IMG/VR virus record: IMGVR_UViG_3300045988_158809
Strand: one strand, 5' to 3'
Origin: a virus
Length of the DNA stretch: 64,000 nt
Part shown: piece after piece, positions 4,316 through 64,000 of the stretch
Position numbering within the stretch: position 1 is the stretch's first letter
Layout of the letters: the number at the start of each line of letters is the position of its first letter
The notes under the pieces: generated by a model
The model's input: the letters and a program-made list of their open reading frames with translations, nothing else
What the model was told of the DNA's origin: nothing
Databases searched by the model: none
Position numbers and translations under genes: made by a program

Positions 4316-4383
4316 ATCGTCTAAATGTAAATAAACAAACGTAAGGCATACGGAAAAAACTGTATTAAATGGGTATTAAATAT

Positions 4384-4500
4384 AAATTAAAAGCGCGACG
4401 GAGTACGCCGCGCTAGGATACTAAAAGTGTGAAGCAATTCACAAATGAAAACCTACTGATAGTAGATTTTCGTTTTAATCCACAAGGGAAAATCCCTTGA
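4384..4500 (-). ncRNA. candidate ~115-nt structured small RNA on the minus strand
   Basis: Minus-strand -7 box at 4506-4513. Four hairpins follow (CAAGGGA/TCCCTTG, CTACT/AGTAG, GTGAA/TTCAC and GC-rich AGCGCG..CGCGCT at 4392-4414), then TTTAATTT. No ORF. Confidence 0.45.
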
Positions 4501-4505
4501 CGGCA

Positions 4506-4513
4506 CAAAGATA
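4506..4513 (-). promoter_or_regulatory. minus-strand -7 box TATCTTTG
   Basis: + strand reads caaagata; the only leftward promoter-like box in the + strand early block. Confidence 0.45.
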
Positions 4514-4597
4514 GTATTTATCTTATATCCAAAAAATATTCATCATAATTTCTATACCTGTTTTATGAACTGAATTATTATTTTAAAAGAAAAATCA

Positions 4598-5263
4598 ATG
4601 AAAACACAAATAGAGAAACTTAGACAACTTTCAGATAAAAAGAAAGGTGTAGTAATGAATCAATATGTAGATGATTTATTACGCAATGGAAAAGCATATA
4701 CTGTACGGAGCCGGTATAGTGGACGTTACTACCATAAAAAGAGTTATACTGAAGAACTGGATAAACTTCTTACAGAGCATGGCATAAGCCATGAAATAGG
4801 AAACGACGCCCCTCGCGGTGGAATGAATGGTGAGTTTGTATCACTTAAAGGTACTGTGTTAAAGTATGTATTAGACCGCAAAAAGGAAAGAGAGGAATTC
4901 TGGAAAGCAGAACAAGATGGCAAGGATAAACAAAGGAAATTGGCTTATGAAAGATATAAACAGGAATGCGAAAAAACTTATAAGTTCTGCGTGGAGAATA
5001 ATATAGAAATTGATTTTTCTTACTTTACTGAAAAAGATAATGAAAGGTTTTTCCATCTTGATTATGACGATATAAAGAAGGAAAAATTAGGATATAAAAT
5101 ATCTATTCCTAAACGCTTTTACGGTATAGCATCGAGGTCTTCAGGTGTACATTCGAATGAAGGATTTCGTAGATACGTTAAAGAAAAACTGTTGTCTTCG
5201 GGTTTATCGCATGAAGGGTGCAAGATTACTAAAGTTTACGACTGTGGCGTTGGCGATGGTTAA
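4598..5263 (+). CDS. hypothetical protein (221 aa)
   Basis: ORF track; Lys/Glu-rich. Confidence 0.65.
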   Translation: MKTQIEKLRQLSDKKKGVVMNQYVDDLLRNGKAYTVRSRYSGRYYHKKSYTEELDKLLTEHGISHEIGNDAPRGGMNGEFVSLKGTVLKYVLDRKKEREEFWKAEQDGKDKQRKLAYERYKQECEKTYKFCVENNIEIDFSYFTEKDNERFFHLDYDDIKKEKLGYKISIPKRFYGIASRSSGVHSNEGFRRYVKEKLLSSGLSHEGCKITKVYDCGVGDG

Positions 5264-5272
5264 TTTATACCA

Positions 5273-5309
5273 CCTATGGAGTTTCAGAAATATCACTGTT
5301 TTGTTTTTT
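5273..5309 (+). repeat. early-region junction motif, variant ...AAATATCACTGTTTTGTTTTTT
   Basis: cctatggagtttcagaaatatcactgttttgtttttt. Confidence 0.8.
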
Positions 5310-5322
5310 AATTATACTATTT

Positions 5323-5616
5323 ATGGACGAAAGATTTATAATTACACGATTTACTGACGATACAAACCGCTGGGCGTTGGAAGACACTGAGTTTGGAGTG
5401 TTGTATGAATATGTTGGCGCAGACCTTAACCCTGTAAATATCCTTACAGAAAAGAAAGGATTTTTCGACGGCAAGAAAGGACATCAGCGGATGGTTAATT
5501 TAGGAGTGGACGCTATCCAGTTCATCATAAAGAATCATGAGAAGATTTTCAGACTGGCCGAAATAGAAGAAGATGATATTGATGAATATCCGCAAATGGC
5601 GACAGAACTGAACTGA
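5323..5616 (+). CDS. hypothetical protein (97 aa)
   Basis: ORF track. Confidence 0.55.
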   Translation: MDERFIITRFTDDTNRWALEDTEFGVLYEYVGADLNPVNILTEKKGFFDGKKGHQRMVNLGVDAIQFIIKNHEKIFRLAEIEEDDIDEYPQMATELN

Positions 5617-5656
5617 GTTATCCCGAATAAATCCGTTTCTCTTTATTATATTCAAC

Positions 5657-5688
5657 CCTATGGACCTATAAAAATATCACTGTTTTTT
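5657..5688 (+). repeat. early-region junction motif abutting start codon 5689
   Basis: cctatggacctataaaaatatcactgtttttt followed directly by ATG. Confidence 0.8.
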
Positions 5689-6144
5689 ATGCAAGTATTC
5701 GTAACATCTACATCGTGTATCGAGACCGCCTCACAGCTCGACAAGAAAAGACTTAACAAACAGATTATAGAAGCCGGACAAATCCTTAAAGCCATAAGAG
5801 GGGAGGGGAAAGGCTGGCACCATCATCCTGCTACCCTGATGTATTCACACCACACGGCATGGCTGGAGCTTTACCGTCTTTGCCTGCAGGCCTACATGTC
5901 CGGCAACACTCAGGAGGCAGAAGCATACAGCCGACAGGCAGACGCGATACGTCCGCCCTTCCTGACAGACAGCCTTTGCGAGCAGCACAGAAAACGCCTG
6001 TTCACCAAAGCTCCGGAGCTATATCCTTTATTCCAGGCGTACGGCACGAGCCGCGAGAACTGGTATATTGTAGATGGCAGATTATTGAGATATATCGACG
6101 GCAAACTTATAAAGAAGCCTATGGAAAATGCCGGAAATCACTGA
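5689..6144 (+). CDS. possible pyrimidine-dimer DNA glycosylase (endonuclease V/DenV)-like protein (151 aa)
   Basis: N-terminal LDKKRLNKQIIEAGQILKAIRGEGKGWHHHP resembles the LD.KgL...EA..L.G...GY.hHP pattern of bacterial Pyr_excise-type proteins; recalled by eye only. Confidence 0.4.
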   Translation: MQVFVTSTSCIETASQLDKKRLNKQIIEAGQILKAIRGEGKGWHHHPATLMYSHHTAWLELYRLCLQAYMSGNTQEAEAYSRQADAIRPPFLTDSLCEQHRKRLFTKAPELYPLFQAYGTSRENWYIVDGRLLRYIDGKLIKKPMENAGNH

Positions 6145-6151
6145 TTTTTTT
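6118..6151 (+). repeat. early-region junction motif; its TGA is the stop codon of 5689..6144
   Basis: cctatggaaaatgccggaaatcactgattttttt. Confidence 0.85.
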
Positions 6152-6229
6152 ATTTATAATCGTGTCGGCAAAAAAAGATTGTAGTGAATACTGATTATAA
6201 TAGAAGTAACAATTAAAAATGTAGATATT

Positions 6230-7006
6230 ATGGGAAAATACGATTTCGATGATTCAATATATGACTATGAAGAAGAATTGTTTTATAACATTCGTTACTC
6301 AGACGATGTGACATTGATAGAAAATGTATCACATCTGCGTCATCACATAAACTGTCATGGCTTTAGTGAAAAATTATATGAGTATCTGAATATGGATTAC
6401 GAACAAATCTGTCAAGTGGTGGAATGCGCCAAAGGATCTATTTCTGTGGCAAGTCTGAGAAAAGATTTTAATGGCGTTATGGCTCCATTGATTGAGGAAA
6501 AACAGCGTAAAGAGGAAGCAATGGCAAAGAATGAAAAACTCATTGCCTGCCTGAAGGACAAAAGAAAAACTATGTGTGGAATAGGGACAAGAAAGCTGAA
6601 ACTGTTCCTTAACAAACTGATAAAGCAAGGTGACACAACAGCAGCTTTATATAGGACAGTACTGGAAGCAGAAGACTTTAATATTAAAGCAAAAGATACC
6701 CGTCTTGATTACAAGGAAAAAGTTTACGAAAAAAAGCATGAAGAAATACACAAACTGATAGAATTATGCCGTGAATATGGAGTCACGTTCGGGAAACAGT
6801 TGTCCGATGTCAGAGATACACGATATGTGGTTTATTTTGAACTGCCAAATATGGAACAAATCAGTTTTCATACGGATTTGATTGATGCCGGTAAGATACC
6901 CGACTATACGAAGGAGTGGGACGGCAAGCGATGTTCCACCCTCGGAAAGATTGAGAATGCCATTAATTTCAGATACAGAGATAGGATTGAAGAAGTCTAT
7001 AAATAA
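6230..7006 (+). CDS. hypothetical protein (258 aa)
   Basis: ORF track. Confidence 0.65.
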   Translation: MGKYDFDDSIYDYEEELFYNIRYSDDVTLIENVSHLRHHINCHGFSEKLYEYLNMDYEQICQVVECAKGSISVASLRKDFNGVMAPLIEEKQRKEEAMAKNEKLIACLKDKRKTMCGIGTRKLKLFLNKLIKQGDTTAALYRTVLEAEDFNIKAKDTRLDYKEKVYEKKHEEIHKLIELCREYGVTFGKQLSDVRDTRYVVYFELPNMEQISFHTDLIDAGKIPDYTKEWDGKRCSTLGKIENAINFRYRDRIEEVYK

Positions 7007-9025: not shown

Positions 9026-9490
9026 TTAAGTCAACTCTCCACCTCCACCGTCTTCACCACCGCCAGACTCTCCGCCGCCACCGGGTGATGTCGGTTCCGT
9101 GTCGGCTTCTTCGTAAGACACGACCGACAGATTACCGATAAATTCACGAAGTTTCTTTCCCGGTTGGAAAAGTATATGTTTGCGTTTTATGGAGTCCACT
9201 GTGGCTGTATCTGCCGTGTCCTGGCTTGCTGCGCTGAAAGTTGGTTTGAAGATACCGAAATCGCCAAGCCTTACGCCGTGACCTTGTTTCATAAACGTAA
9301 TACTTACTTCAATAAGAGCTTCTATAGCTGCATAGACTTCACCGTTATTAAGACGTGATTGTTTAGCGACTTCCTGAAGAATGTCCTCATAGCTGACTGT
9401 GTGGTTTCGCTGTGCGGTAGCCACATACTTTTCTGCTTTAGTCTTGTCGAAAGCAAAAACTCTTTTCTTTACTTTGTAACCTAATGGCAT
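9026..9490 (-). CDS. HU/IHF-like DNA-binding protein, Bacteroidota type, with Gly/Glu-rich tail (154 aa)
   Basis: VSYEDILQEVAKQSRLNNGEVYAAIEALIEVSITFMKQGHGVRLGDFGIFKPTF fits the HU-fold pattern. Start moved to MPLGYKV (ATG 9490) from ORF-track 9562. Confidence 0.65.
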   Translation of the reverse strand: MPLGYKVKKRVFAFDKTKAEKYVATAQRNHTVSYEDILQEVAKQSRLNNGEVYAAIEALIEVSITFMKQGHGVRLGDFGIFKPTFSAASQDTADTATVDSIKRKHILFQPGKKLREFIGNLSVVSYEEADTEPTSPGGGGESGGGEDGGGGELT

Positions 9491-9642: not shown

Positions 9643-11187
9643 TTATTTTTGAACTATCTCATACTTAATCTTCGCCTTCTCGCCAAATGCAGCTTCCGAA
9701 GCCTGTTCCAGCAGGGGCTTGAAGTTTTCCTGAATATATGTGTAGAAGAATGCGGTAGGCACTTTAATCGTGACTGTACCGCAGCCCGTTCCGCCGTAAT
9801 CGAGAAAGCGTAGCCAGGTGTTATATTCCGTCACGGTGCAGTTGTTCTGAATCACGTCCATGAAGATTTGCCATGCCTGGAGTTCCTTTTCCGTAGGCTG
9901 CGGGGTGGGGGATGCTTCCTTCTCCTCCTGCTGCCCTTTCTGTTCCGGTGGTTCCGGGTGAGCTTCTGGCGTGCGGCTGGTGATGAAGTTCTTCAGCGAG
10001 GTGATGACGTATGCCTTTACTGAGCGCGGCTTGTATCGCTTCACCATATCGCCCAGTTCGAGCACATATTTGCGGAAGTCGTTCACCAGCTCGTCGGGAA
10101 GCATATCCGACAGGCCTTTCACGTCGGTATCGGTCAGCTTGTATTCGGTGCGAAGGAGCGTCCATGCGTCGGCAGGCTGGTTGATGCGCTTGCGCTGCTG
10201 ACGGAGTTCTTCGCCCAGTCCTGAAAGCTTTATCTGGAACTGCAGGTTTTCGGGGTTTCCCCGCTTTGCGCCATTCTTGTATAGCGGCTTGTAATCAAAA
10301 GTAAAGTCCACGAGGTTGTATTCAGAAAGTTCGTCCAGATCTTCCTTTATCGGGTCGAGCACAGTGGAACAGAAACGTGAAAATTTGGGGTAAATGTCCT
10401 TATCCACCTTCACCTTGTTTCCGTTCTTGTCAGTTTCGGTCACTTCCTCTATCAGTCCGAGGTACTTTTTAAGCTCTACAAGGTTGACTGATTTACTGCC
10501 TATATCCTTCCATCGGGTGAGGTAGATGTAGATGGAAGGGGTGCGCTTGCGCCGGCATATACGGGTGATGTGGCGAAGATGGTTCATGTATCCCAGTCCG
10601 TTTCCGAGGTCGCAAAGGTATCTCAGGGTATTAAGCGACATCTGGACTTCCACATAGTTTTCGCGCCGTGTGGTGCTTTTCTTGTATTTGTATGTGCCTC
10701 CGATTTTCTCTTTTTCGGGAATACTGATTTCGGTGAACACATTTGCGAACACGCGCCTTAGCTGACCTGTTTCGGCATCCCGGCGTATGTAAGTGACGGA
10801 CATGTTTTTCAGATTCCCGCACGTTTCCTGAAGGATATGATACGCGTCCGGCTTTACACCTATCGATGCGGTATCTACGCGCAGAGTGACTATCTTGTTT
10901 TCGGTCTGTTTATTGTCTTTCGACTTATCCAGGCACTCCGCAAGGTCGTTTTCTTCTGGCATTCCGAGTTCAGGGAAAAGTACGAGCTGACGCCCGGCAT
11001 TTCCTTTTTTCAGGTATTGGTTGAACTGGTCCTGCAGGGAGTTCATGAGTTCTATCATGATGCTTCGCTCCGTGAGGGTGAAGTCGCCTCCTATCGTGGC
11101 GTAAAGATACGGCTGCTTGATAAATTCACAGTCTTTCAGCTCGCTTACAAGCTGGCTTTTCGGCAGAATATCTTTCTGTTTTTTCAT
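9643..11187 (-). CDS. replication initiator (plasmid Rep-like N-terminal part) with C-terminal DnaA-domain-I-like module (514 aa)
   Basis: Adjacent to iterons. The C-terminal 80 aa (WQIFMDVIQNNCTVTEYNTWLRFLDY..TVTIKVPTAFFYTYIQENFKPLLEQ..KIKYEIV) mirror the DnaA N-terminal domain pattern. Confidence 0.6.
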   Translation of the reverse strand: MKKQKDILPKSQLVSELKDCEFIKQPYLYATIGGDFTLTERSIMIELMNSLQDQFNQYLKKGNAGRQLVLFPELGMPEENDLAECLDKSKDNKQTENKIVTLRVDTASIGVKPDAYHILQETCGNLKNMSVTYIRRDAETGQLRRVFANVFTEISIPEKEKIGGTYKYKKSTTRRENYVEVQMSLNTLRYLCDLGNGLGYMNHLRHITRICRRKRTPSIYIYLTRWKDIGSKSVNLVELKKYLGLIEEVTETDKNGNKVKVDKDIYPKFSRFCSTVLDPIKEDLDELSEYNLVDFTFDYKPLYKNGAKRGNPENLQFQIKLSGLGEELRQQRKRINQPADAWTLLRTEYKLTDTDVKGLSDMLPDELVNDFRKYVLELGDMVKRYKPRSVKAYVITSLKNFITSRTPEAHPEPPEQKGQQEEKEASPTPQPTEKELQAWQIFMDVIQNNCTVTEYNTWLRFLDYGGTGCGTVTIKVPTAFFYTYIQENFKPLLEQASEAAFGEKAKIKYEIVQK

Positions 11188-12995: not shown

Positions 12996-14741
12996 ATGGA
13001 AAACGTTATTACAAATGCTTATGGAACAGGTAATTTATTGTCCAGAAGCAATCTCATGAAAGGCTGTACTTCTTACAGCGCAACGAGTATCGAAAACTGT
13101 TCGGGCGACTTTGCCCGTATGCTGCATCCCGCATCCGTCGGTAATCTGGTCACGGTCAGCAATCCGTACGACAAATTTTCTACGCAGGAACGTGAGGCGA
13201 TGGCCCACACCTGGCACTTTCATCTTATCTCTGCCGAATGCACCTTTGCAGAATATCTGTATAACTATGTGCGCGAACTGGAGCAGATGATGGACGCTCA
13301 CGGTTTGCTGAAGTTCAACGCCAAGCGTCTGGTGAATGAACTGAAGGATACCGTACAGAGTATGCAGGTGCTCGTAAGGGGACACGGACGCGCACAGATC
13401 AAGCTTTTCTGTGTTCCTATCTTCGCCCCGATGGCCGACGAGTATTACAACATCGGCGGAGACCTGACAAGCCGTATCGTGCTGCGCATCCGCAAGCGCA
13501 TTGACGAGGAAGTGACCCGTATGTTCTACTGCACGAAGAATATGCTGAACCGTACCGGTTGCCCGTATGCCGACGTGCTGAACCACCTGCAGATGATTAT
13601 GTTCGTGGTGACTACCGATATAGAGTTTTCCGACGTGGTGAGAGACCGCGCAAGAAAGTTGCTCGACGGTACCGGAAAGGAGATTCAGTACACCATGTCG
13701 AACCACAACGCGCGCATCGTGAAGGCCGCACGCCAGCTCATCCTCCAGCTATACAATGAAACGAAGTATCCTTTCCACAAGGAGGATATGGAAAACGTGC
13801 GTACGCTGGCCCGCGTGATTCAGGAAAGGCTGGTGGGCGAACGTACCCGCGATGCGATGGACGAAGAAATATGGGGTGTGCGCGGCGACTTTACGCTCTT
13901 CGTGCTTCTCCGTCTGGCCATGCGCCTGCAAGGTCAGGGCGAGCCGGTGAGCCGCAAGGAGCTGAAGCATCTGCTGTTCCGCCTGGGCACGAAAGAGAAT
14001 GTGCGGGCCTTTGTGAAGGAACTGCGGGCAACCGCTATTCCCGAAGGTGAGGACATGATAGACCGCCTGGAGGGGTTTGACATTCCGGAAAGCAGTGACA
14101 CCCTGATGCAGCAGTTTTTCCGCCTGTGTCTGGAAGACAAGTCGATGTACCGGCCTTTCAGCTCGGACGAGGAAGTGAAGATGCGAAATATTCGTCAGAT
14201 GGTGTACTACAGCAAGGACTCCACTATCAGCGATTCTATGCTACGCTACATCTTCATCATGAAGGGAGGAGTGAAGAAGCGGGTGGAAGAGTTTCTTTCC
14301 GCCGCCGGTACCGAAGTGATGCGCAAGACGCTGCGCAAGCTGAAAAAGATGAAGGTGGCCGACCTGCAAGGACGAAAGGGCCGTTACTACTTTGATTTCT
14401 TTAAGGGTATAGACGAGCTGCGTAAGGAGCGCGGACTGAGCGACAAGGGCATGATGCAGGCCATGGGTTTAGGAAAGACGAAATATTACGGCATGAAGAA
14501 AGTCACCTCCATGCGCTATACGCGTGGTGATGAAATAAGCCGTCTGATTCGTGACCTTTCCACTTTCATGAAGGTGGATGCCGCCTATTACCTGTATCTG
14601 TGCATCCGTGAGACGGACAACGAGCTGGTTTCCGAGCAGACGGTGGAATACGTGCTTCGACGCGGCATTGTGGTGTATCTCACGAATAATGAAATCATGG
14701 CCGAAATGGATTCTGGAGAAGAGTATCAATTGGAAGGATAA
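12996..14741 (+). CDS. hypothetical protein (581 aa)
   Basis: Long uninterrupted ORF, visibly GC-richer than its flanks; no domain recognised. Confidence 0.7.
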   Translation: MENVITNAYGTGNLLSRSNLMKGCTSYSATSIENCSGDFARMLHPASVGNLVTVSNPYDKFSTQEREAMAHTWHFHLISAECTFAEYLYNYVRELEQMMDAHGLLKFNAKRLVNELKDTVQSMQVLVRGHGRAQIKLFCVPIFAPMADEYYNIGGDLTSRIVLRIRKRIDEEVTRMFYCTKNMLNRTGCPYADVLNHLQMIMFVVTTDIEFSDVVRDRARKLLDGTGKEIQYTMSNHNARIVKAARQLILQLYNETKYPFHKEDMENVRTLARVIQERLVGERTRDAMDEEIWGVRGDFTLFVLLRLAMRLQGQGEPVSRKELKHLLFRLGTKENVRAFVKELRATAIPEGEDMIDRLEGFDIPESSDTLMQQFFRLCLEDKSMYRPFSSDEEVKMRNIRQMVYYSKDSTISDSMLRYIFIMKGGVKKRVEEFLSAAGTEVMRKTLRKLKKMKVADLQGRKGRYYFDFFKGIDELRKERGLSDKGMMQAMGLGKTKYYGMKKVTSMRYTRGDEISRLIRDLSTFMKVDAAYYLYLCIRETDNELVSEQTVEYVLRRGIVVYLTNNEIMAEMDSGEEYQLEG

Positions 14742-14753
14742 ACAATATATAAA

Positions 14754-15609
14754 ATGAATTTGACAGAGAAAATAGAGTATTCAATTAATCTATTGAAAAA
14801 GAGTGAGAAAATGGCTCTTAAAATAGACCCTGAAAACGGCTTTTATTTGGCGTTTTCGGGTGGGAAAGACTCACAGGTATTATACCATTTAGCCGTAATG
14901 GGGGGGGGTGAAATTTAAAGCCCACATGAACCTTACAAGCGTAGATCCACCGGAGGTTATCAGGTTCGTAAAACAGCATTATCCTGATGTGGAACTGATA
15001 AAGCCGAAAATGAGTATCTATGATATGGCGAAGAAGAAAGGCTGTCTTCCTACTCAGAAAGTCAGATGGTGCTGTGAGGAATTTAAGGAAATGTCTGGGG
15101 CCGGCAAGGTTACGTTAATCGGAATAAGACGAGAGGAAAGTGCAAGAAGATCGAAGCGTAATGAGGTAGAAATGAATAATTATAAATTCAGCGGAAGCTT
15201 CGGTCAGTGGAGCGAACATCGCGAGAATATGGTGACTTGCGTGGGAGGAAAAGATAAGATAATTGTCAGTCCGATACTCTACTGGACGAGCCGCGACGTT
15301 TGGGAGTTTCTTAATTCAAACTACATACCTCATTGCAGTCTTTACGATAAAGGGTATAAAAGAATAGGTTGCATACTCTGTCCAATGTCAAATTATAAAC
15401 AAAAGATTAGAGAGATAAGAGATTATCCGCATGTTAAAAGAAATTGGATAAAAGCTATAGAGTGGATGATGGAAAATAAATGGACTGAAAAACGTTTAAC
15501 GGAAGATGCGGAAATGGCTTTCAACTGGTGGATAAGCGGGAAATCTTTCAAACAGTTTTATGCGGATGAATATCTGCAACAGAAGATAGATTTTGAGAAC
15601 GTAAAATGA
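14754..15609 (+). pseudogene. PAPS-reductase-family (PP-loop ATPase) gene split by a frameshift in a G9 tract
   Basis: ATG 14754 encodes MNLTEK..FYLAFSGGKDSQVLYHLAVMGGG and stops at 14916-14918. The rest (VKFKAHMNLTSVDPPEVIRF..RREES..) continues in the next frame from 14908. Removing one G fuses both parts. Confidence 0.7.
14900..14908 (+). repeat. homopolymeric G9 tract
   Basis: Counted directly: g at 14900 plus 8 g at 14901-14908. Confidence 0.95.
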
Positions 15610-17124: not shown

Positions 17125-18117
17125 ATGGAAAACAAATTACCGAAATATATCAAAGGACAGTTTGTGGTAATGAGAAGTATAGAAGAGCTTCGAGCCATGA
17201 ATTATAAAGACGATGTGCTTAATTTTGTCCGTCCACTTGCGGGACAGGTAGTTATTATAGATAATGTTTCTAAAGCAGCGAATTCTTATTTTTATACCGT
17301 ACGAAAGTATAAGGAAAATCATTGTGTAATGGTACATGAAGATTTTATTTTGTGCGATGCAAACGGCCGGACGCAAAGAGAATCTCTTGAATGTCGCAAT
17401 GAAATAGACAGTATAATAGCTCGTGATATTCATGTAGCGCAATTAGATACCAGCAAGTTCAATCCCAGCCCTATGGAAACATGGAAAGCCTTGTTTGCCA
17501 GTGTAGAATCTTTTCTCTCCGTTGCTTCTCCTGATATACAGGCATGGGCAGCCGGACAACTATATGGTTACTCTGAATGTCTGATGCAGCAGATAACTGA
17601 AACGCCTATAGAAGCTCCGGATACCGGGAAGGAAGATTTCAATGCTACAATTCTTGTATGTCTTGCAGATGATGTACTGGAATGTCCGAATGAATGTGGA
17701 GGAAAAGAATTTGCTACTGGTACATTTAAACTGAAAGATGGTGCTTATTTCAGTAAGTACAGGATAAAGTCGTCATGTGTAGTTTATACTTCAAAAAACA
17801 TCGGATTAAGAAGTTATAACCATAAATCCGGACTTTTTTCTTTGGGATTTACAATTCGTCAGGAAGGATTTACTGAAGAAGATTTAAAGGATTTCCTGTT
17901 TAAATTTAAGGGAAGGAGAGTGGTTTTATTGTATAAGGAAGATGACAAAACATATTATAGCTGTATTTATACCAATGATATTACTTCTTCTTATGTGAAT
18001 TTTCTTTTAGATGAATCTGGTCTGAAATATGTTAGCCTGATTGCAGAAAGAGTTTTTGCTTTAGAGATAAGATTAAAAGAAGAGGATTTGAATTTATCTG
18101 AATTATTAAAAGACTAA
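17125..18117 (+). CDS. hypothetical protein (330 aa)
   Basis: ORF track. Confidence 0.7.
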   Translation: MENKLPKYIKGQFVVMRSIEELRAMNYKDDVLNFVRPLAGQVVIIDNVSKAANSYFYTVRKYKENHCVMVHEDFILCDANGRTQRESLECRNEIDSIIARDIHVAQLDTSKFNPSPMETWKALFASVESFLSVASPDIQAWAAGQLYGYSECLMQQITETPIEAPDTGKEDFNATILVCLADDVLECPNECGGKEFATGTFKLKDGAYFSKYRIKSSCVVYTSKNIGLRSYNHKSGLFSLGFTIRQEGFTEEDLKDFLFKFKGRRVVLLYKEDDKTYYSCIYTNDITSSYVNFLLDESGLKYVSLIAERVFALEIRLKEEDLNLSELLKD

Positions 18118-27015: not shown

Positions 27016-27513
27016 ATGAATTTAACCAGACCTTACAAGACCTGCCGCGTATGCGGATGCACCAAGCCGAAAGAGGATTTCGTGGAAGGAAGGAAAGTAT
27101 GTCTCTCTTGCTTCTCCGAATACAATAAGCAGCTCTACAGAAAAAGACATGCAGACCGTTCGGATGGAGTAAGATACAGCAAGGAATCCCGACAGATAGT
27201 GGAATACCGTAACGGGCTACAGCGGAAATACTGGAATCCGCAGATGATAGCCGATTTCAGGAAATTGTTTCCCGTCACTACGAATGAAGAGCTTGCTTCT
27301 TTGTTCTGTGTGTCGAAAAGAACAATCAACCGTAAGGCTACGGAACTGGGGTTGAGAAAAGATGCGGAGTGGATGCGGAAGATGAGTCGTCACAACCTGT
27401 TTTTCGCATCGGTGAAGAATCGCTTAAACGGTTATTCACAACTGGTAAAGGCCCGTAAGGCACTGGAAATAAAGTATAACAATCCGAATTTTACAAGAAT
27501 AGACAGAGTATGA
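27016..27513 (+). CDS. zinc-ribbon + HTH DNA-binding protein (165 aa), paralog of 26506..27012
   Basis: CRVCG..CLSC then TTNEELASLFCVSKRTINRKATELGL. Confidence 0.6.
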   Translation: MNLTRPYKTCRVCGCTKPKEDFVEGRKVCLSCFSEYNKQLYRKRHADRSDGVRYSKESRQIVEYRNGLQRKYWNPQMIADFRKLFPVTTNEELASLFCVSKRTINRKATELGLRKDAEWMRKMSRHNLFFASVKNRLNGYSQLVKARKALEIKYNNPNFTRIDRV

Positions 27514-28292
27514 ATATAGAACTGAATACAATATATAACGAGGACTGTATGGAAGGTATGAAGCGTATTCCTGACGGATCGGTGGATTGCATTATTTGTG
27601 ATTTGCCGTATGGAGTATTGAATAGAGGAAATGAACATGCGCAGTGGGACTGTCCTTTACCTATGGATCAACTTTGGGCTGAATATAAAAGAGTAACAAA
27701 GGACAATGCAGCTATAATTCTTTTTGCTCAAGGAATGTTTACTGCAGATTTAATGGTTAGCAACAGGAACATGTGGAGATATAATCTGATATGGGATAAA
27801 ATGGGTAAAACGGGATTTTTGAACGCCAACAGAATGCCTCTCCGACAGCATGAAGATATATGTGTATTCTATAATTCTTTGCCGGTGTATAATCCACAAA
27901 TGGAGAAATGTGAATTGCATAAAAGAAATCATGGACGTGGAAATCTTAAATCGCCTGTAACAAATAGTTGTTATGGTAAACATATAGAAGTAAAAACTAT
28001 CGAAAGTGATGAAAAATTCCCTACTTCTATTATAAGTATATCAAAGGAACATAAAATAGGGCATTTTTTTCACCCCACCCAGAAACCCGTTTCCCTCCTG
28101 AAATACCTCGTCCTCACCTACTCTAACAAAGGCGACACAATTCTTGACAACTGTATTGGAAGTGGCACAACAGCCTTAGCTTGCATAGATACTGGGCGCA
28201 ACTTCATCGGATTCGAGAAAGAAAAGAAATATTTCGACATAGCCATGAAGCGTATCGCTCAAATGAGACAACAACCAAAACTTGATTTTTAA
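27510..28292 (+). CDS. DNA methyltransferase, beta-class N6-adenine/N4-cytosine type (260 aa)
   Basis: Motif IV SVDCIICDLPYG precedes the PTQKP and DNCIGSGTT (motif I) segments, the order typical of the N6_N4_Mtase family. Confidence 0.85.
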   Translation: MNIELNTIYNEDCMEGMKRIPDGSVDCIICDLPYGVLNRGNEHAQWDCPLPMDQLWAEYKRVTKDNAAIILFAQGMFTADLMVSNRNMWRYNLIWDKMGKTGFLNANRMPLRQHEDICVFYNSLPVYNPQMEKCELHKRNHGRGNLKSPVTNSCYGKHIEVKTIESDEKFPTSIISISKEHKIGHFFHPTQKPVSLLKYLVLTYSNKGDTILDNCIGSGTTALACIDTGRNFIGFEKEKKYFDIAMKRIAQMRQQPKLDF

Positions 28293-36464: not shown

Positions 36465-36950
36465 ATGAACACGACATTTGAAAAGTCAGCAAACAGTACC
36501 GACGAATGGTACACCCCGAAAGAAATACTCGATGAGCTGGGCCCTTTCGACCTCGACCCATGTGCGCCGGTAGTTCCACTGTGGCCAACGGCTGCCACCA
36601 TGTATAATAAGAACGACGACGGACTTTCTAAGCCGTGGTTTGGCCGTGTATGGCTCAACCCTCCCTACTCCCGTCCGCTCATCGAGCAGTTTATCAACCG
36701 CATGGCGGAACACGGAAACGGCATCGCGCTTCTATTCAACCGGTGCGACAGCAAGATGTTTCAGGATGTGATTTTCAAGAAAGCATCCGCCATGAAGTTT
36801 TTGCGCCACAGAATAAAGTTCTACAGGTCAGATGGTTGTAGGGGGGGGTCGCCCGGATGTGGCAGTATTTTGATAGCTTTTGGCGATGAGAATGCAAATG
36901 TCATTCGTGATTGTAAGATAGAAGGTAAATTTGTATCACTTAAAGATTAA
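36465..36950 (+). CDS. phage Dam-type DNA N6-adenine methyltransferase (161 aa) containing an in-frame G8 tract
   Basis: DEWYTPKEILDELGPFDLDPCA and VWLNPPYS are hallmark segments of the small phage Dam family. Confidence 0.75.
   Translation: MNTTFEKSANSTDEWYTPKEILDELGPFDLDPCAPVVPLWPTAATMYNKNDDGLSKPWFGRVWLNPPYSRPLIEQFINRMAEHGNGIALLFNRCDSKMFQDVIFKKASAMKFLRHRIKFYRSDGCRGGSPGCGSILIAFGDENANVIRDCKIEGKFVSLKD
36841..36848 (+). repeat. homopolymeric G8 tract inside the Dam-type MTase ORF
   Basis: Counted directly; encodes ..CRGGS.. in frame. Confidence 0.95.
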
Positions 36951-39624: not shown

Positions 39625-40479
39625 ATGGCAAAAATTATTTCAGTGGTCAACTTCAAAGGGGGAGTGGCCAAATCAACCACAGCTTTTAATCTTGCGGCTG
39701 CACTTTGGATGTGCGGCAAACGTGTTTTGATAGTAGATGCAGATCCGCAGTATGAACTTACTACCCGTATCGGGTTTAATGAGCGCGATGCGGAGACTAT
39801 GTATGAATGGATGCTGTCGGAGGGTACGAAGAATGAACTTCCGGCTCCTATATATAACAGGTATGCCGGAAACGATGATTTCTGTTTTATCCCATCAAGT
39901 TCAAAGGTCTCAAACATCGAGCAGGCTCTTGTCACTCAGCCCAACCGCTTCAAGTCTCCGTATATGATATTGAGAAATCTGCTGCATAAGTATTGCGAAG
40001 ATTTCGATTATATCTTCCTGGACTGTCCACCGTCGCCGGGATTTATGAATAATCTGGCTCTTATCGCGAGTGATGAAATTATCGTGCCTGTGGAATGTGC
40101 CGGTGAGTCAATCGACGGACTTATCAAACTTGATATGACTATTCAGGACGTGAAGGAACAGGTGAATCCTGATTTGACGATAAAAGGCTACCTGCTTACC
40201 AAGTACGACGACCGTACAAAAATCACACGAAAAATCAGAGAGGAAATTTCGGAGGAGGGGTTACTCCTGAATACGAAAATCCGCTCGTCTATCAAGTTTA
40301 AGGAGGCGGGTATGTTCTATAAGAACATCTTTGAGTATGATCCGAACGGAAACGGCGCCGAGGATTATATGTCGCTGGCAGAGGAACTGTTTGATGTGAA
40401 AAGGCCGGACAACTGGAAGACTGTTTCGGCTGAGTGTTGGGAAAAGACTATTGGTTCGCAAACCGAGGACGAAGAATAA
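39625..40479 (+). CDS. parA: ParA/Soj-family partition ATPase (284 aa)
   Basis: Deviant Walker A VVNFKGGVAKSTTAFNLA, VLIVDADPQ, and Walker B-like DYIFLDCPPS. Confidence 0.85.
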   Translation: MAKIISVVNFKGGVAKSTTAFNLAAALWMCGKRVLIVDADPQYELTTRIGFNERDAETMYEWMLSEGTKNELPAPIYNRYAGNDDFCFIPSSSKVSNIEQALVTQPNRFKSPYMILRNLLHKYCEDFDYIFLDCPPSPGFMNNLALIASDEIIVPVECAGESIDGLIKLDMTIQDVKEQVNPDLTIKGYLLTKYDDRTKITRKIREEISEEGLLLNTKIRSSIKFKEAGMFYKNIFEYDPNGNGAEDYMSLAEELFDVKRPDNWKTVSAECWEKTIGSQTEDEE

Positions 40480-59266: not shown

Positions 59267-59298
59267 TTGCCATAAACAATCATTCTTATTTATGGCAA
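59267..59298 (+). promoter_or_regulatory. 10-bp perfect inverted repeat enclosing the tape-measure start codon
   Basis: ttgccataaa (59267-59276) / 12-nt loop / tttatggcaa (59289-59298); the ATG is 59292-59294. Confidence 0.5.
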
Positions 59299-62200
59299 AA
59301 AGCGACAGCAACAAGGTTGCACATATAGAACTTCTACTTAATGGTAATAAGGCACGAAATGTGCTTGAAGGATTACGTCGCGGTGCGGAATCCTTGAAAA
59401 AAGAACTGGAGGAACTGAAAGCGACAGGCCTTCCTGATGATGACAAGCGTGTCAAACAGTTGACCGCTGCATTAAAAGATGCCACGAGTGCGGTAAACGC
59501 GGCAGAACGTAATTTGCTTGACCTTGACAGTATTGTGAAAAATCTTAGCAGTCAAAGTCTGAAAAAACTTGAAGCTGCCGCAAGACAGCTAAAGAAACAA
59601 ATGTCGCTTACGGCTGGAGATGACCCGAAGTTAAATGAACTCATAAAGCAGTATCAGACTATCAATGAACAGATTGATAATATCACTAATCGGTGGAAAA
59701 AGCAAAACACAGAACTTAATCAGACTGAGAAGGAGTTGCTTGATATCAAGAAGATAATAGACAGTCTTGATACGCAGAGCGTTGATGTTCTGGAAAAAGC
59801 CAAAAGTCAGATAAAGAAAGAATACACGAGTGTTTCGCCAACCGATCCTAAAATGAAGGAACTGGCGGCACAGTATAAAATCATTGATGAAAGAATAAGT
59901 GATATAAACAACGGGCTAAAGCGGCAAAACACAGAACTTGACAGTTCTGAAAAAGAATTGCTGGACATTAAGAAGATTGTAGATACTCTTGATACTCAAA
60001 GCCTGAAAATCTTGAATCAGGCAAAGACTCAAATAGAAAAAGACCTGAACGAGGCAATACCCGGTTCAGAACAAATGGCTGAATTGTCAGAGCAGTATAA
60101 GGTTATAAAAAACAGAATATCCGAAGTTTCTGATACCTGGAAAAAACAGGAAGAGGTAATTGAAGATGTAGAAGAAGAATTGCTTGATGTCAATAAGATT
60201 CTGAAAGAACTTAACAAGCAGGATTTGGCTACTCTTACCAAAGCCATGAAGCAGGTAAGGGATGAAATGGAACATACGGCTGCCAATTCTCCTAAAATGA
60301 AAGAATTGGCCAAGCTGTATCAAGCCCTTGATGACCAGGTATCGAAAATAACAGGTTCATGGAAGCGTCAGGACGGCGCTATTACGTCTGTGGTGCGCAG
60401 ACTTGCCGCGTATGTGTCGGTGTATGGCGGATTTAATCTGGTTACAGACCGTTTGCGACAGATAGTTACTGGGAATCTGGAATTTTCCGATTCCCTTGCA
60501 GATATTCAGAAAACTACCGGACTTTCTGCCGACGGTGTAGCTGAATTAAGTTACCAGATAAGCAAGATTGATACCCGTACAAGTGTTCAGGCTCTTCATG
60601 AACTTGCATACGAAGCCGGAAAGCTTGGTATAGGTAGCGAAGGTGTGGAAGGTGTGGCAGGATTCGTTCGTGCAGCAGATAAGATTTCAGTTGCTTTGGG
60701 AGAAGAACTTGGAGGTTCGGAAGCGATTAAGGAACTGATGAAAATGAATGATGTGTTAGGCCTTACACAGAAAATGGGTATTGAAAAATCCCTTATGGCC
60801 ACAGGTTCTGCAATCAATCTTTTAGGACAGACTTCTACTGCTAATGCAAGTTATATAGCTGATTTCGCAAAGAGACTTTCAGGTATTGCCACACAGGCCC
60901 ATATAACAATGGATGAAATTCTGGCTTTTGGTGCGGCAGCAGACGCAACAGGTCAGGAGGTGGAAGTGGCGGCTACTGCAATGAACTTGTTTATCACACA
61001 GTTACAGACACACTATAAGACAGTTTCTCAGGCAGCCGGAGTAAATGAAGAAACAATAAAGAATCTTCTTGAAATGGGTAAGACTACCGAAGCTGTCATG
61101 ATAGTTCTTAGAGGATTGTCAGAGAAAGGCGGTCTTTCACAGTTAGGGCCAATTATGAAAGATTTAGGTTCGGAAGGTGCGCGTATGTCTGGTGTGCTTG
61201 CCAACTTCGCAAGTAATCTTGATATGGTGGAACAGGCTTTAATGGTCTCAAAAAAAGGTTTTACAGAAGCTACTTCAGTAACCAACGAATATAACATCAA
61301 GAATGAAAATGCGGCGGCCATAATGGAGAAGATGGCTAATTCATGGGAGAAGATGTTTGTCAATTCCCAGAATACCGGACTTGTGAAAGATATGGCCGAC
61401 AATTTCTATGAGCTTTCAAAATCCTTGCAGCAAAGCAGCGTGTGGATGAACTCTATATATGCTATATTATGGGGATTACAGAAACTCATATCCACACTCA
61501 TTGCTTCCCTTCCTGTTTTGATAACGCTGTTTACTTTGAAGGGGCTTGTGGTGGGTATCGCTCGTCTTTCAGCCTTTATAAAAGAAGCCCGTGCGGCTGC
61601 TACTGCAATGACCGTGCTTAATTCAGCCATGAAAAGCAATGTCATAATTTCTGTTATCAGTCTTGTGGCCGGTCTTGCATTCAGTCTTGTAAATCTAAAA
61701 CGTGAACTATCCGATGTAGAAAAATCTGCAAACGACCTTAGTGACAGCTTTCGCAAATTCAGTAAGGACAGTAACGCCGCAGGAATAGAAGCAAATACCC
61801 TTTTTGGACGATTGAAAAACCTGAAAGCAGGTACTGATGAACGTCGTGATTTGCTCATTAAGATTAATGAACTATATGGAAAATACATTCCCCATCTGCT
61901 TTCCGAAAAATCCACTCTTGAAGAAATTAAGGAAGCCCAGGATGCGGTAAACGCTTCGCTGGCACAATCCATAGCCTACCGTTCAAAGGAGTCGGCCATA
62001 CAGCGAGTTGGTGAACAATATACAAGCAAGCTGGCCGACCAGATTAGTGATTTGCAGAATGTGTATAGTGCGGCTGGAGTAGGGAACTTAGGAGATATTG
62101 ATGCACAGAAGTTAGCAGAACTTACGGCAAAGTATTATGATGCAGGGCTGAAATGGCGCTCGGCGCAAAAACAGATCTGGCAGGACATGTACGGGCAGAA

Positions 62201-64000
62201 AGGTATGTCACACAGTCTGGTTACTGAGAACAGTGTGTTTATCAATCGAATGGATGAAGCGCAGCGTGCTGTAAATAATTATGTGGCCCATTTCTACAAC
62301 CAGCAGCAGGCAATAAAAAATATCAATAAAAAGTACGATCCGGTTATCGGTTCCTACAAGCCGAAGGAAGAAGAGGAAGGTCCGTATAAAATTACGGAGG
62401 CAGAAAAAGACTCTGAAGCCAAACGCCGACAACGTGAAGCATTGAAATATGCGCGCGATGAATACGATGCGGTTATGGCAGCTATCAAGGTGTATTACAG
62501 CCAGCAGCGTCAGGTTATCAATGACAGCTACCTGCAGCAGAAGATTACAACCGAACAGCGGGAAAAGGAACTTACTGACATTGAACTGAGAGAATTGAAC
62601 ACACGCATAGAGGCACGTAAGAAGCTTCATGGCGATGCCGATGAGAACTGGGCTACAGAACTTGGTTACATTTCGCAGAATGACATTGCAAAAACGGATT
62701 CTTCGCAAAAGGCTATTGTAAACCTCACCTCGAAAAACCTGGACGACATTCGCGAAAAACTGAAAAAGTTTGGTACCGGTGAAATGGATGGAATATGGTC
62801 TGAGCTGGAAAAAGATCTTTTGAAGATTCAGGAAATATCCATCGATTTGCAGAAGGAAATCGAGGACATTCTTCTGAAAAAAGATTATTCCGGGCAGGTG
62901 GAAAGAAACTATCAGGCACAGCTTGAAAAGCTCGGACTTTTCTTTACGCAATATGAAGAGATGGCGAAGGAAGGAATGGAGGGTGCTTCCGGAGAAATGC
63001 TTTTAGGCCTGAAAAAGCTGGCCAACCAGGCAGCAGGTGAAGGAATGAAGGCATTGCTCGATATAAGCAAACAGCTTTACACCATCGATATAAATACCGA
63101 AGAAGGACAGGCGGCTTTCCGTAAGATGTTGTCCGACCAGGCTATTTTCGGCGAAGAAATGGTAAATCTGGAAGGAGACCGTCTGAAGGCACTTTATTAC
63201 AAGACCATTGAATACGGCGACGCTACCACTCAGGCCATAAAAAAGCAGCGCGAGGAGCAGTTGAAGATTGCAGCAGAAAGATTTGCTCCACGCCAGCGCG
63301 AGCTTGATAAAGAGGGAAAAGGTTATGAATGGGCTGTAAATTTCCGGAAAGCAGAGCATGACATTGGTCTGGCCACTCCAGGAATGGTGCTCGATACGGA
63401 AGTGGAAATGTATCGTCAACGACTGGAAGCCGCTCAGGAATATTACGATTATCTGGCCACGCATGGATACGATGTGGAAGAGCAGCGTATGGTAGTAGAA
63501 CAGGCCGCTTCCGATTTGTCGGAAAAGATGGTGGAGCAGGTAAAAAACAGGTTGAGCACCTATAAAGACTATTTCGATGCCTTTGAGGAAATGGGAGAAA
63601 ACTTTACCTTTGAGGGTGGAGAAGAAGGGCTTGAAGCGCGACAGGAAGCGTTTGAGAATTTCGTGAAGGAAATGGGAAATCTCACGAAAGAGCTCATCAT
63701 GAACTGGGTGAAGGAGAAGATAGAACATGCGCTCATTCGTGCGGCGATGGTTGATACAGAGAAAGAATCGCAGGATGAAATGAGTGATGTGTCAAAGGAA
63801 GGTTTGGAAAGTGAGGGAGATATAGCGAAGAAAGCTGGTAAGAAAACTTTGAGCGAAATAGCAAAAGTTGGCTTGTCAAAGATTTCCTTGAAAAAGAAAG
63901 AAAACAAGGATGTGACAAATGTAGTTCAGGAAGGGCAGAATGCTGAACAGACCTTAGTTCAGGAAGGAGCCGGGGCCATTGCTAACGCTACAATGCAAAT
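59292..64000 (+). CDS. tail tape measure protein, 3'-truncated by the window end (more than 1569 aa)
   Basis: The frame is open from ATG 59292 to the window end. I checked codons 59292-60240 explicitly and read the rest through without seeing a stop. It is absent from the ORF track because it is unterminated. Features: coiled-coil repeats, the core segment LADIQKTTGLSADGVAELSYQISKIDTRTSVQALHELAYEAGKLG and a hydrophobic segment, all typical of tape measures. Confidence 0.8.
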   Translation, partial: MAKSDSNKVAHIELLLNGNKARNVLEGLRRGAESLKKELEELKATGLPDDDKRVKQLTAALKDATSAVNAAERNLLDLDSIVKNLSSQSLKKLEAAARQLKKQMSLTAGDDPKLNELIKQYQTINEQIDNITNRWKKQNTELNQTEKELLDIKKIIDSLDTQSVDVLEKAKSQIKKEYTSVSPTDPKMKELAAQYKIIDERISDINNGLKRQNTELDSSEKELLDIKKIVDTLDTQSLKILNQAKTQIEKDLNEAIPGSEQMAELSEQYKVIKNRISEVSDTWKKQEEVIEDVEEELLDVNKILKELNKQDLATLTKAMKQVRDEMEHTAANSPKMKELAKLYQALDDQVSKITGSWKRQDGAITSVVRRLAAYVSVYGGFNLVTDRLRQIVTGNLEFSDSLADIQKTTGLSADGVAELSYQISKIDTRTSVQALHELAYEAGKLGIGSEGVEGVAGFVRAADKISVALGEELGGSEAIKELMKMNDVLGLTQKMGIEKSLMATGSAINLLGQTSTANASYIADFAKRLSGIATQAHITMDEILAFGAAADATGQEVEVAATAMNLFITQLQTHYKTVSQAAGVNEETIKNLLEMGKTTEAVMIVLRGLSEKGGLSQLGPIMKDLGSEGARMSGVLANFASNLDMVEQALMVSKKGFTEATSVTNEYNIKNENAAAIMEKMANSWEKMFVNSQNTGLVKDMADNFYELSKSLQQSSVWMNSIYAILWGLQKLISTLIASLPVLITLFTLKGLVVGIARLSAFIKEARAAATAMTVLNSAMKSNVIISVISLVAGLAFSLVNLKRELSDVEKSANDLSDSFRKFSKDSNAAGIEANTLFGRLKNLKAGTDERRDLLIKINELYGKYIPHLLSEKSTLEEIKEAQDAVNASLAQSIAYRSKESAIQRVGEQYTSKLADQISDLQNVYSAAGVGNLGDIDAQKLAELTAKYYDAGLKWRSAQKQIWQDMYGQKGMSHSLVTENSVFINRMDEAQRAVNNYVAHFYNQQQAIKNINKKYDPVIGSYKPKEEEEGPYKITEAEKDSEAKRRQREALKYARDEYDAVMAAIKVYYSQQRQVINDSYLQQKITTEQREKELTDIELRELNTRIEARKKLHGDADENWATELGYISQNDIAKTDSSQKAIVNLTSKNLDDIREKLKKFGTGEMDGIWSELEKDLLKIQEISIDLQKEIEDILLKKDYSGQVERNYQAQLEKLGLFFTQYEEMAKEGMEGASGEMLLGLKKLANQAAGEGMKALLDISKQLYTIDINTEEGQAAFRKMLSDQAIFGEEMVNLEGDRLKALYYKTIEYGDATTQAIKKQREEQLKIAAERFAPRQRELDKEGKGYEWAVNFRKAEHDIGLATPGMVLDTEVEMYRQRLEAAQEYYDYLATHGYDVEEQRMVVEQAASDLSEKMVEQVKNRLSTYKDYFDAFEEMGENFTFEGGEEGLEARQEAFENFVKEMGNLTKELIMNWVKEKIEHALIRAAMVDTEKESQDEMSDVSKEGLESEGDIAKKAGKKTLSEIAKVGLSKISLKKKENKDVTNVVQEGQNAEQTLVQEGAGAIANATMQ
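59619..60380 (+). repeat. about 3.4 tandem in-frame repeats of 222-225 nt (74-75 aa) in the tape measure N-terminus
   Basis: Units start at 59619, 59844, 60066 and 60288: DPKLNELIKQYQTINEQI.. / DPKMKELAAQYKIIDERI.. / EQMAELSEQYKVIKNRI.. / PKMKELAKLYQALDDQV.. Confidence 0.8.

Follow-up and report, generated by a model that had tools for sequence, protein, structure and literature searches.

A 64,000-nt stretch of viral DNA (IMG/VR virus record IMGVR_UViG_3300045988_158809; hereafter the window) carries a gene of the PAPS-reductase fold that is split into two reading frames at a run of nine guanines (G9). The split is a +1 G insertion relative to an in-frame G8 allele, and at this site a homopolymer of G6 to G12 is kept among near-identical genomes. 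A second G tract, of variable length as well, lies in a Dam-family methyltransferase gene of the same element. We consider it probable that slipped-strand mispairing at the first tract generates heritable ON and OFF alleles, of which the window holds an OFF one, that the Dam-like gene has the same design, and that the likely use is a bet-hedging of the DNA-modification state.

The G tract of the PAPS-reductase-fold gene

The G9 tract stands in the context ...GCCGTAAT-GGGGGGGGG-TGAAATTTAA, as the first-pass annotation of this DNA had described it (coordinates in Table 1). The frame that opens at the ATG passes through the tract and meets a stop at 14916-14918 after 54 aa (C-terminus ...AFSGGKDSQVLYHLAVMGGGEI*), while the rest of the gene is read in the +1 frame. 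When one G is taken out, a single protein of 284 aa is obtained, as had been predicted, and natural G8 alleles of the same length are known (P0126 and P0002; P numbers denote proteins and L numbers loci). The label PAPS-reductase-like was likewise appropriate: the Pfam model PAPS_reduct (PF01507) matches the G8-repaired protein over residues 32-210, across the break (E 3.6e-24, 86 bits vs a cutoff of 22.5), and matches the 3' fragment by itself with an E value of 1.7e-18. The homopolymer thus lies inside an open reading frame (ORF) in which G8 and G11 are in frame and the other lengths truncate the product.

Runs of this length are rare in the window, where ten G5, one G6, no G7, one G8 and one G9 were counted and about 0.09 runs of nine or more G's are expected. 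The G8 pattern GGGGGGGG has 3 matches, while dinucleotide shuffles average 0.45 and a count of 3 was attained in 1 of 100 of them. The earlier statement that a G9 is very unlikely by chance in an AT-rich genome therefore stands as to chance, while "AT-rich" was overstated, the window having 42% GC. GGG is the rarest Gly codon, with 10.5% of the Gly codons in 30 window ORFs.

A comparison of tract length in related genomes had been proposed as a check. The homologous position (GCCGTAAT-Gn-TGAAATTT) was read in more than 120 loci, all lengths being taken from consensus assemblies. Related phage contigs of ~98 kb have G6, G7, G8, G9, G10 and G11 in their DNA, and G12 is deduced from the protein fragment P0303 alone. 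G7 was seen in DNA from 5 samples and G6 likewise from 5, the flanks carrying differing single-nucleotide polymorphisms (SNPs). A census of IMG/VR, by pattern scans blind to tract length, returned 31 contigs. The frame is kept in 24 of them (23 with G8, and one with G11, which adds one Gly) and lost in the other 7: two have G9, four have G10, and one has G8 followed by an extra A (L105, ~9137-9174). In a further locus (L220, ~772) the T next to a G6 allele has become G, and a G8 run is regenerated without the frame being restored.

The proteins show the same picture. A search with the first 49 residues recovered about 26 clusters of N-terminal fragments of 46-67 aa that end directly past the tract, and their C-termini agree with the predictions for G6, G7, G9, G10 and G12. 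Large clusters among them are P0298, P0291 and P0296, with 67, 37 and 23 members, respectively. In the cluster of the PAPS-like protein itself, 6 of 7 members are truncated.

The changes in length are recent and recurrent. L119 (G9, SRR13447394) and L120 (G8, SRR14099384) are identical at 1771 of 1771 nt; L116 (G8) and L117 (G9) share 99.85% and 99.1% identity on the two sides of the tract, and L083 (G11) and L084 (G8) share 98.5%. Full-length and truncated proteins (P0126/P0127, P0001/P0124) are identical in their shared parts. When the gene is placed in a neighbour-joining tree, its out-of-frame alleles fall on 10 or more separate tips, some of them at zero divergence from in-frame siblings, so that tract length differs recurrently among near-identical genomes. 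These data, together with the variation of the Dam tract described below, support the proposal of the first-pass annotation that the gene is a contingency locus.

Twelve non-G8 alleles were reset to G8. Nine out-of-frame alleles and the in-frame G11 allele of L086 then gave proteins of 280-284 aa; the out-of-frame L104, and L083, run off their loci without a stop. Since the reset restores an intact protein, the tract is the sole lesion in the nine OFF alleles that could be followed to a stop codon. The gene is otherwise kept by purifying selection: the ratio of nonsynonymous to synonymous divergence (dN/dS) is about 0.1, ranging from 0.08 to 0.14 within the 'ATG' subclade, including the branch to the window. 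The ratio is quoted within the clade only, as dS between subclades is saturated or, through codon misregistration, unreliable (pS above 0.75).

The tract has a restricted phylogenetic distribution. Two GGG codons with flanking G's are confined to one monophyletic group, made up of the 'ATG' and 'CAG' subclades; deeper relatives lack a tract and have Ala-Gly there, with the codons GCA GGA. Its origin from such a non-tract ancestor (GCA GGA to GGG GGG) took several substitutions to G. Between the window and L001, which represent the two halves of the ATG subclade, dS is ~0.9-1.2, and the tract is kept in both.

The first-pass annotation had named a homopolymer sequencing error as the trivial alternative, under which the gene would really have G8 and its frameshift would stem from sequencing or assembly. 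Long G runs are indeed harder to sequence, the lengths come from assemblies, and the extra A of L105 resembles an error-type lesion. The Logan, JGI and ENA (SPAdes, 38x coverage) assemblies of the same strain, however, all agree on G9; the Logan contig L081 and the ENA contig L082 are 100% identical to the window. The window's 54-aa (P0121) and 227-aa fragments each occur on 8 contigs from the three pipelines, those with P0121 being up to 98,163 nt long. Changes of +2, +3, -1 and -2 are all observed, and the G6 and G7 alleles are each common to several samples. Control tracts behave differently: a coding G7 about 1.7 kb away (IRGGGT, in a 573-aa gene of the sister clade) has the same length in all 38 loci, and ten control-gene clusters of the same element, four of them with A7 runs, are nearly uniform in length, the exceptions being two unrelated dimorphisms. 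One A7-run control gene shows one 241-aa form; otherwise the four A7 clusters are uniform. Because of the comparative tract data, the invariant G7 control and the nearly uniform A7 controls, we regard an assembly error as highly improbable. The exact G8-repaired protein of the window was absent from a collection of 15 billion sequences.

The second tract, in a Dam-family methyltransferase gene

The second G tract reported for the Dam-type gene was found as described, a G8 inside an intact 161-aa ORF; it is separated from the first tract by 22 kb. The protein belongs to the phage Dam family PF05869, scoring above the family threshold (Table 1) and having an NPPY motif in its translation; the NCBIfam equivalog TIGR01712 gave 37 against a cutoff of 97.

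Relatives of this gene in IMG/VR have no tract and so do not lend themselves to a census of lengths; the 90% protein cluster (149 members) took their place. Its variants diverge exactly at the tract (TGGTTGTA-Gn-TCGCCCGG), and at least 6 of the 15 members listed are altered there. A variant of 135 aa ending in ...CRGGRPDVAVF corresponds to the prediction for G7, and one such protein, P0130, is found on 22 contigs by itself. Other variants have 141 aa, 160 aa (an in-frame shortening) or 161 aa in frame. G7 was also seen in DNA, in L209, and the overall range is about G6 to G10.

As in the PAPS-like gene, the tract derives from a non-tract ancestor by several substitutions to G, here from CGC GGA GAT to AGG GGG GGG; relatives of at most 81% amino-acid identity encode RGDSPG with the former codons and have no tract. 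Its creation changed the Asp of RGDSPG to Gly (RGGSPG) and the Arg codon to AGG. This Asp is nearly invariant in the relatives of at most 81% identity (loci L129-L208).

Slippage, recurrent loss and recoding as readings of the tracts

In the mechanism that we favour, the G tract in the 5' part of the PAPS-reductase-fold gene would be a hypermutable simple-sequence repeat, at which slipped-strand mispairing in replication adds or removes G's. Alleles with G8 or G11 would yield the full-length enzyme (ON), and those with G6, G7, G9, G10 or G12 a product truncated at ~51-67 aa, directly past the PP-loop (OFF); the window would represent a heritable OFF allele. The second tract would toggle the Dam-family methyltransferase likewise. 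Progeny with and without the DNA modification could then meet different host restriction, BREX or modification-dependent nucleases, which would amount to bet-hedging. We infer both the rapid, reversible character of the change and this use of it.

Several observations weigh against this reading. Of the 8 non-G8 variants in the IMG/VR census just 1 is in frame, so there is no enrichment of in-frame lengths. Every assembly of the window strain appears to have G9, and a fixed loss-of-function allele would fit this as well. Rapid switching, reversion and heterogeneity within populations would be extrapolations from consensus assemblies. Conservation of synonymous sites in the tract is suggestive and not decisive: 29 of 33 unique sequences have G as the third base of its invariant Gly codon, typical 4-fold sites having ~0.6-0.67, which places it in the top ~12% of 4-fold sites. 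Bacteroidales are known chiefly for phase variation by invertases, not by repeats, and they have mismatch repair. The uncertain function of the enzyme also counts against it: its scores lie below the curated cutoffs, and no adjacent P-loop NTPase partner was found (see below).

Some of these points would equally be expected if the tract were a mutational hot spot without an adaptive role, in a dispensable gene whose OFF alleles are neutral or slightly deleterious and in which recurrent pseudogenisation is followed by purging. The uniform G9 of the window strain and the lack of enrichment of in-frame lengths agree with this, as do the persistence of G6 and G7 alleles, expected to be less mutable, in several samples with flanking SNPs, and the interruption or loss of the tract in some lineages (L002, L008, L005/L009, L026/L049). 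Recurrent loss, on the other hand, does not readily account for a tract that is kept across a dS of ~1 or more in two subclades, although it uses the rarest Gly codon twice, nor for the lack of a second lesion in any tested OFF allele. Moreover, both long G tracts of the ~73 kb examined (the window and ~9 kb upstream) fall in DNA-modification-type genes, and each arose from a non-tract ancestor by several substitutions. We consider a hot spot without adaptive role unlikely.

A G9 allele could also be decoded to full length, if ribosomes shifted by +1 on GGG GGG G or RNA polymerase slipped on the run. A homopolymer of 9 nt permits perfect re-pairing after a +1 slip, and the stop in the 0 frame lies just three codons past the tract. 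Low-level leakiness through transcriptional slippage on long runs is established in other systems. Conserved recoding would however require a conserved out-of-frame state, whereas the frame is kept in most relatives, G9 alleles stand on scattered tips between which G8 alleles are nested, out-of-frame lengths of both the -1 and the +1 type occur, and deeper relatives have no tract at all. No stimulatory element was noticed on reading the sequence, a systematic search not having been made. A gene with conserved programmed frameshifting or transcriptional slippage was rejected on these grounds, and we find recoding of the G9 allele very doubtful as an explanation; low-level leakiness through slippage may exist beside the switch.

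The enzyme, the phage and related systems

P0002, a natural ON allele, was modelled with AlphaFold (predicted local distance difference test 76, predicted template-modelling score 0.75), and in Foldseek the model hits CysD, APS/PAPS reductases, the FAD synthase PAPS domain, and TtuA and LarE, which are Fe-S sulfur transferases. This fold, the Pfam score and the SGGKDS motif at residues 35-40 place the protein in the PAPS_reduct superfamily. It also has a CC...CxxC set of cysteines, as is typical of APS reductases; an ECG(L/I)H motif was not found in it. All curated NCBIfam models gave scores below their cutoffs. A CysH-type sulfur-assimilation gene was rejected on the scores of TIGR00434 (45 vs 165), PRK02090 (50 vs 154) and TIGR02055 (41 vs 235) and on the lack of ECG[LI]H. 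The level of the DndC/SspD/BrxP family was not reached either, TIGR03183 (DndC) giving 17 bits against a cutoff of 290. In the defence library PADLOC the best match was BrxP (E 5.8e-18, over the PAPS-reductase domain only), followed by DndC (7e-5) and SspD (5e-3). Taken together, the sequence and the model point to a PAPS-reductase-fold PP-loop ATP pyrophosphatase, BrxP/DndC/SspD-like and with APS-reductase-like Fe-S cysteines, possibly a nucleic-acid sulfur or adenylyl transferase. Its role in DNA modification is our inference from this resemblance.

The neighbouring genes are of little help. No gene for a P-loop NTPase partner (DndD, SspC or BrxC) was found next to the PAPS-like gene, Walker A being absent in six neighbouring ORFs. 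Five neighbour proteins (581, 167, 172, 160 and 330 aa) have no match in PHROGs or NCBIfam; those of 581 and 330 aa have none in Pfam or PADLOC either, and the 581-aa protein also lacks a sequence match in the PDB. As the neighbours are without library matches, the operon context yields no functional clue. In the close relatives examined, a homologue of 570-581 aa occupies the place of the upstream 581-aa gene. In the sister clade (L007, 4381-6102) a 573-aa homologue lies downstream of the PAPS-like gene, with a gene for single-stranded-DNA-binding protein (SSB) between them, and gene order around the PAPS-like gene thus differs between subclades.

Variable cargo adjoins the PAPS-like gene in close relatives: L117 has a resolvase and a Tn3-family transposase (4372-6395), and in others an HTH_3 gene replaces the 167-aa gene downstream of the PAPS-like gene (cargo loci L118-L120). 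The sister-clade contig L219 (1-14) has an IS605 OrfB/Cas12f-like (TnpB) gene near it. The 330-aa protein shares a cluster (90% identity or more) with versions of 596 aa on many contigs of ~99 kb (P0190: 27 contigs); this dimorphism could reflect domain gain or loss, or a fusion.

Table 1. Features of the window discussed in the text.
Feature	Position	Strand	Basis
Whole PAPS-reductase-fold gene, in two frames, read as OFF allele	14754..15609	+	ORFs; Pfam; full-length alleles P0126/P0002 (284 aa); AlphaFold/Foldseek
5' fragment ORF, 54 aa and stop; PP-loop SGGKDS; C-terminus ...LAVMGGGEI*	14754..14918	+	ORF; identical product P0121
G9 homopolymer, frameshifting, codons 49-51; in-frame lengths G8 and G11	14900..14908	+	sequence
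3' fragment ORF, +1 frame; 233 aa from GTG 14908, 227 aa from ATG 14926 (P0035); cysteines CC...CxxC (RWCC, GCILCP)	14908..15609	+	ORF; Pfam
Dam-family N6-adenine methyltransferase gene, intact, 161 aa, read as ON allele	36465..36950	+	Pfam PF05869, 45.6 bits vs cutoff 28.1; phrog_111, E 3.6e-38
G8 homopolymer, codons 124-126 (AGG GGG GGG), length-variable	36841..36848	+	sequence; cluster variants
581-aa gene, ends 12 nt upstream of PAPS-like gene (context only)	12996..14741	+	no family match, no Walker A
330-aa gene	17125-18117	+	
N6_N4_Mtase, type II-like methyltransferase	27510-28292	+	E 1.7e-31
Radical-SAM-like protein, 307 aa	30964-31887	+	phrog_9298, E 3e-123; Pfam Radical_SAM below cutoff
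Pyr_excise (T4 DenV-like) gene	~5689-6144	+	match on corresponding gene of identical contig L210
Rep-type initiator	9643-11187	-	library scans
ParA-like partition ATPase	39625-40479	+	library scans
Tape-measure-like ORF, at least 1569 aa, PhageMin_Tail domain, to window end	59292-64000	+	Pfam; library scans

On its gene content and its relatives, the element is a tailed phage of gut Bacteroidales of roughly 98 kb, in agreement with the earlier attribution to a Bacteroidota phage. Relatives of the PAPS-like gene are present in genomes of Bacteroides, Paraprevotella, Prevotella and Tannerellaceae, and relatives carry the source name 'Caudoviricetes sp.'. A GH108 endolysin gene lies directly upstream of the window, which itself ends within a tape-measure-like ORF; proteins identical to those of the window are found on contigs of ~98 kb in JGI, Logan and ENA. 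Two look-ups of minus-strand ORFs at the window end were empty; these ORFs were rejected as spurious, since they lie inside the long plus-strand tape-measure-like ORF. The phage also encodes an HU-like protein, a partition ATPase resembling ParA, and a Rep-type initiator with DnaA_N and a weak Rep3_C match. That it carries Rep and ParA genes of plasmid type suggests a phage-plasmid lifestyle for this tailed phage, and the element is possibly maintained like a plasmid. The DNA of the region had a single match of 171 nt at 70% identity among INPHARED phages and none among PLSDB plasmids, and with no close match in either, no annotated reference genome could be used.

The window encodes three DNA methyltransferase-type genes and a radical-SAM-like protein. 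The 90% cluster of the latter (687 members) also holds proteins of 211-222 aa, which one source names adenine-specific DNA methyltransferase. The region at 28-32 kb is richer in GC (0.48-0.49) than its surroundings.

The nearest precedents are the DNA glucosyltransferase gene agt of phage T2 and the polyG tracts of Campylobacter phages. In agt, according to a preprint (Gomez, Barrick and Waters 2025, PMC12633550), A runs form a contingency locus that toggles DNA glucosylation in the face of TgvAB and McrBC. There too a homopolymer lies in a phage DNA-modification gene, and changes of +/-1 turn the enzyme off and on again; bet-hedging has been proposed between defences that require a modification and those that attack it (PMC12633550). 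T2, a lytic coliphage, has a polymerase of its own, and the rates at which the A runs of its glucosyltransferase gene revert have been measured; in the Bacteroidales phage the runs are of G, the genes are the PAPS-reductase-fold and Dam-like ones, and all evidence is comparative.

Hypermutable polyG tracts in ORFs have been described in Campylobacter phages (Sorensen et al. 2021, Cell Rep 35:109214, as cited in PMC12823448). As in the present case, the length of polyG in ORFs varies, and this gives rise to ON and OFF subpopulations. Those tracts reportedly belong to genes for receptor binding or tail fibres and affect host recognition, the host lineage being one known for polyG hypermutability. 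In the element studied here the tracts are in DNA-modification-type genes of a Bacteroidales phage.

In bacteria, contingency loci based on simple-sequence repeats are classical and include phase-variable methyltransferases of Haemophilus, Neisseria, Helicobacter and Campylobacter. These phasevarions are chromosomal mod genes of restriction-modification systems which regulate sets of host genes. They share with the Dam-like gene a simple-sequence repeat in a DNA methyltransferase ORF, whereas the latter encodes an orphan phage enzyme and has its tract near the 3' end.

With regard to the PAPS-like enzyme, Yuan et al. (2026, PMC12914056) showed that phosphorothioate modification in Bacteroides salyersiae depends on BrxP, a chemistry that also requires a P-loop NTPase partner (PMC12914056). 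BrxP, DndC and SspD have the same PP-loop PAPS-reductase domain, and Bacteroides is a genus within the host range of this phage group; the match to BrxP, however, is at the level of the domain only (232 of 779 profile positions), and no P-loop NTPase partner was found nearby.

Neither for Bacteroidales phages nor for PAPS-reductase-like genes did our literature searches turn up a report of repeat-based switching. What is new is the host group and the gene families only, as hypermutable tracts in phage genes were already known from Campylobacter phages and T2/T4; the evidence from natural populations is unusually rich here.

A more speculative and distinctly unlikely extension is a combinatorial epigenetic switchboard, in which independent polyG tracts would toggle at least two modification enzymes and yield a mixture of progeny in up to four modification states. 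The PAPS-fold enzyme would install a BrxP-like sulfur or backbone mark mimicking the 'self' of Bacteroides BREX type 4 or Ssp-like systems, and the OFF state would escape modification-sensing nucleases. If true, it would be a phage counterpart of the bacterial phasevarions.

For the annotation of viromes, split 'PAPS reductase' genes and truncated Dam genes should be neither auto-corrected nor written off as pseudogenes. The substrate of the PAPS-reductase-fold enzyme is worth determining, and the phage offers a directly testable system, in which tract length can be set against host range and the chemistry of the modification. Should the tracts be real switches, uncultured Bacteroidales phages of the gut would vary their DNA-modification state by slippage, as T2 does at agt, and this would help to explain how such abundant phages persist against the large and varied set of restriction, BREX, phosphorothioate and type IV defences of Bacteroides.

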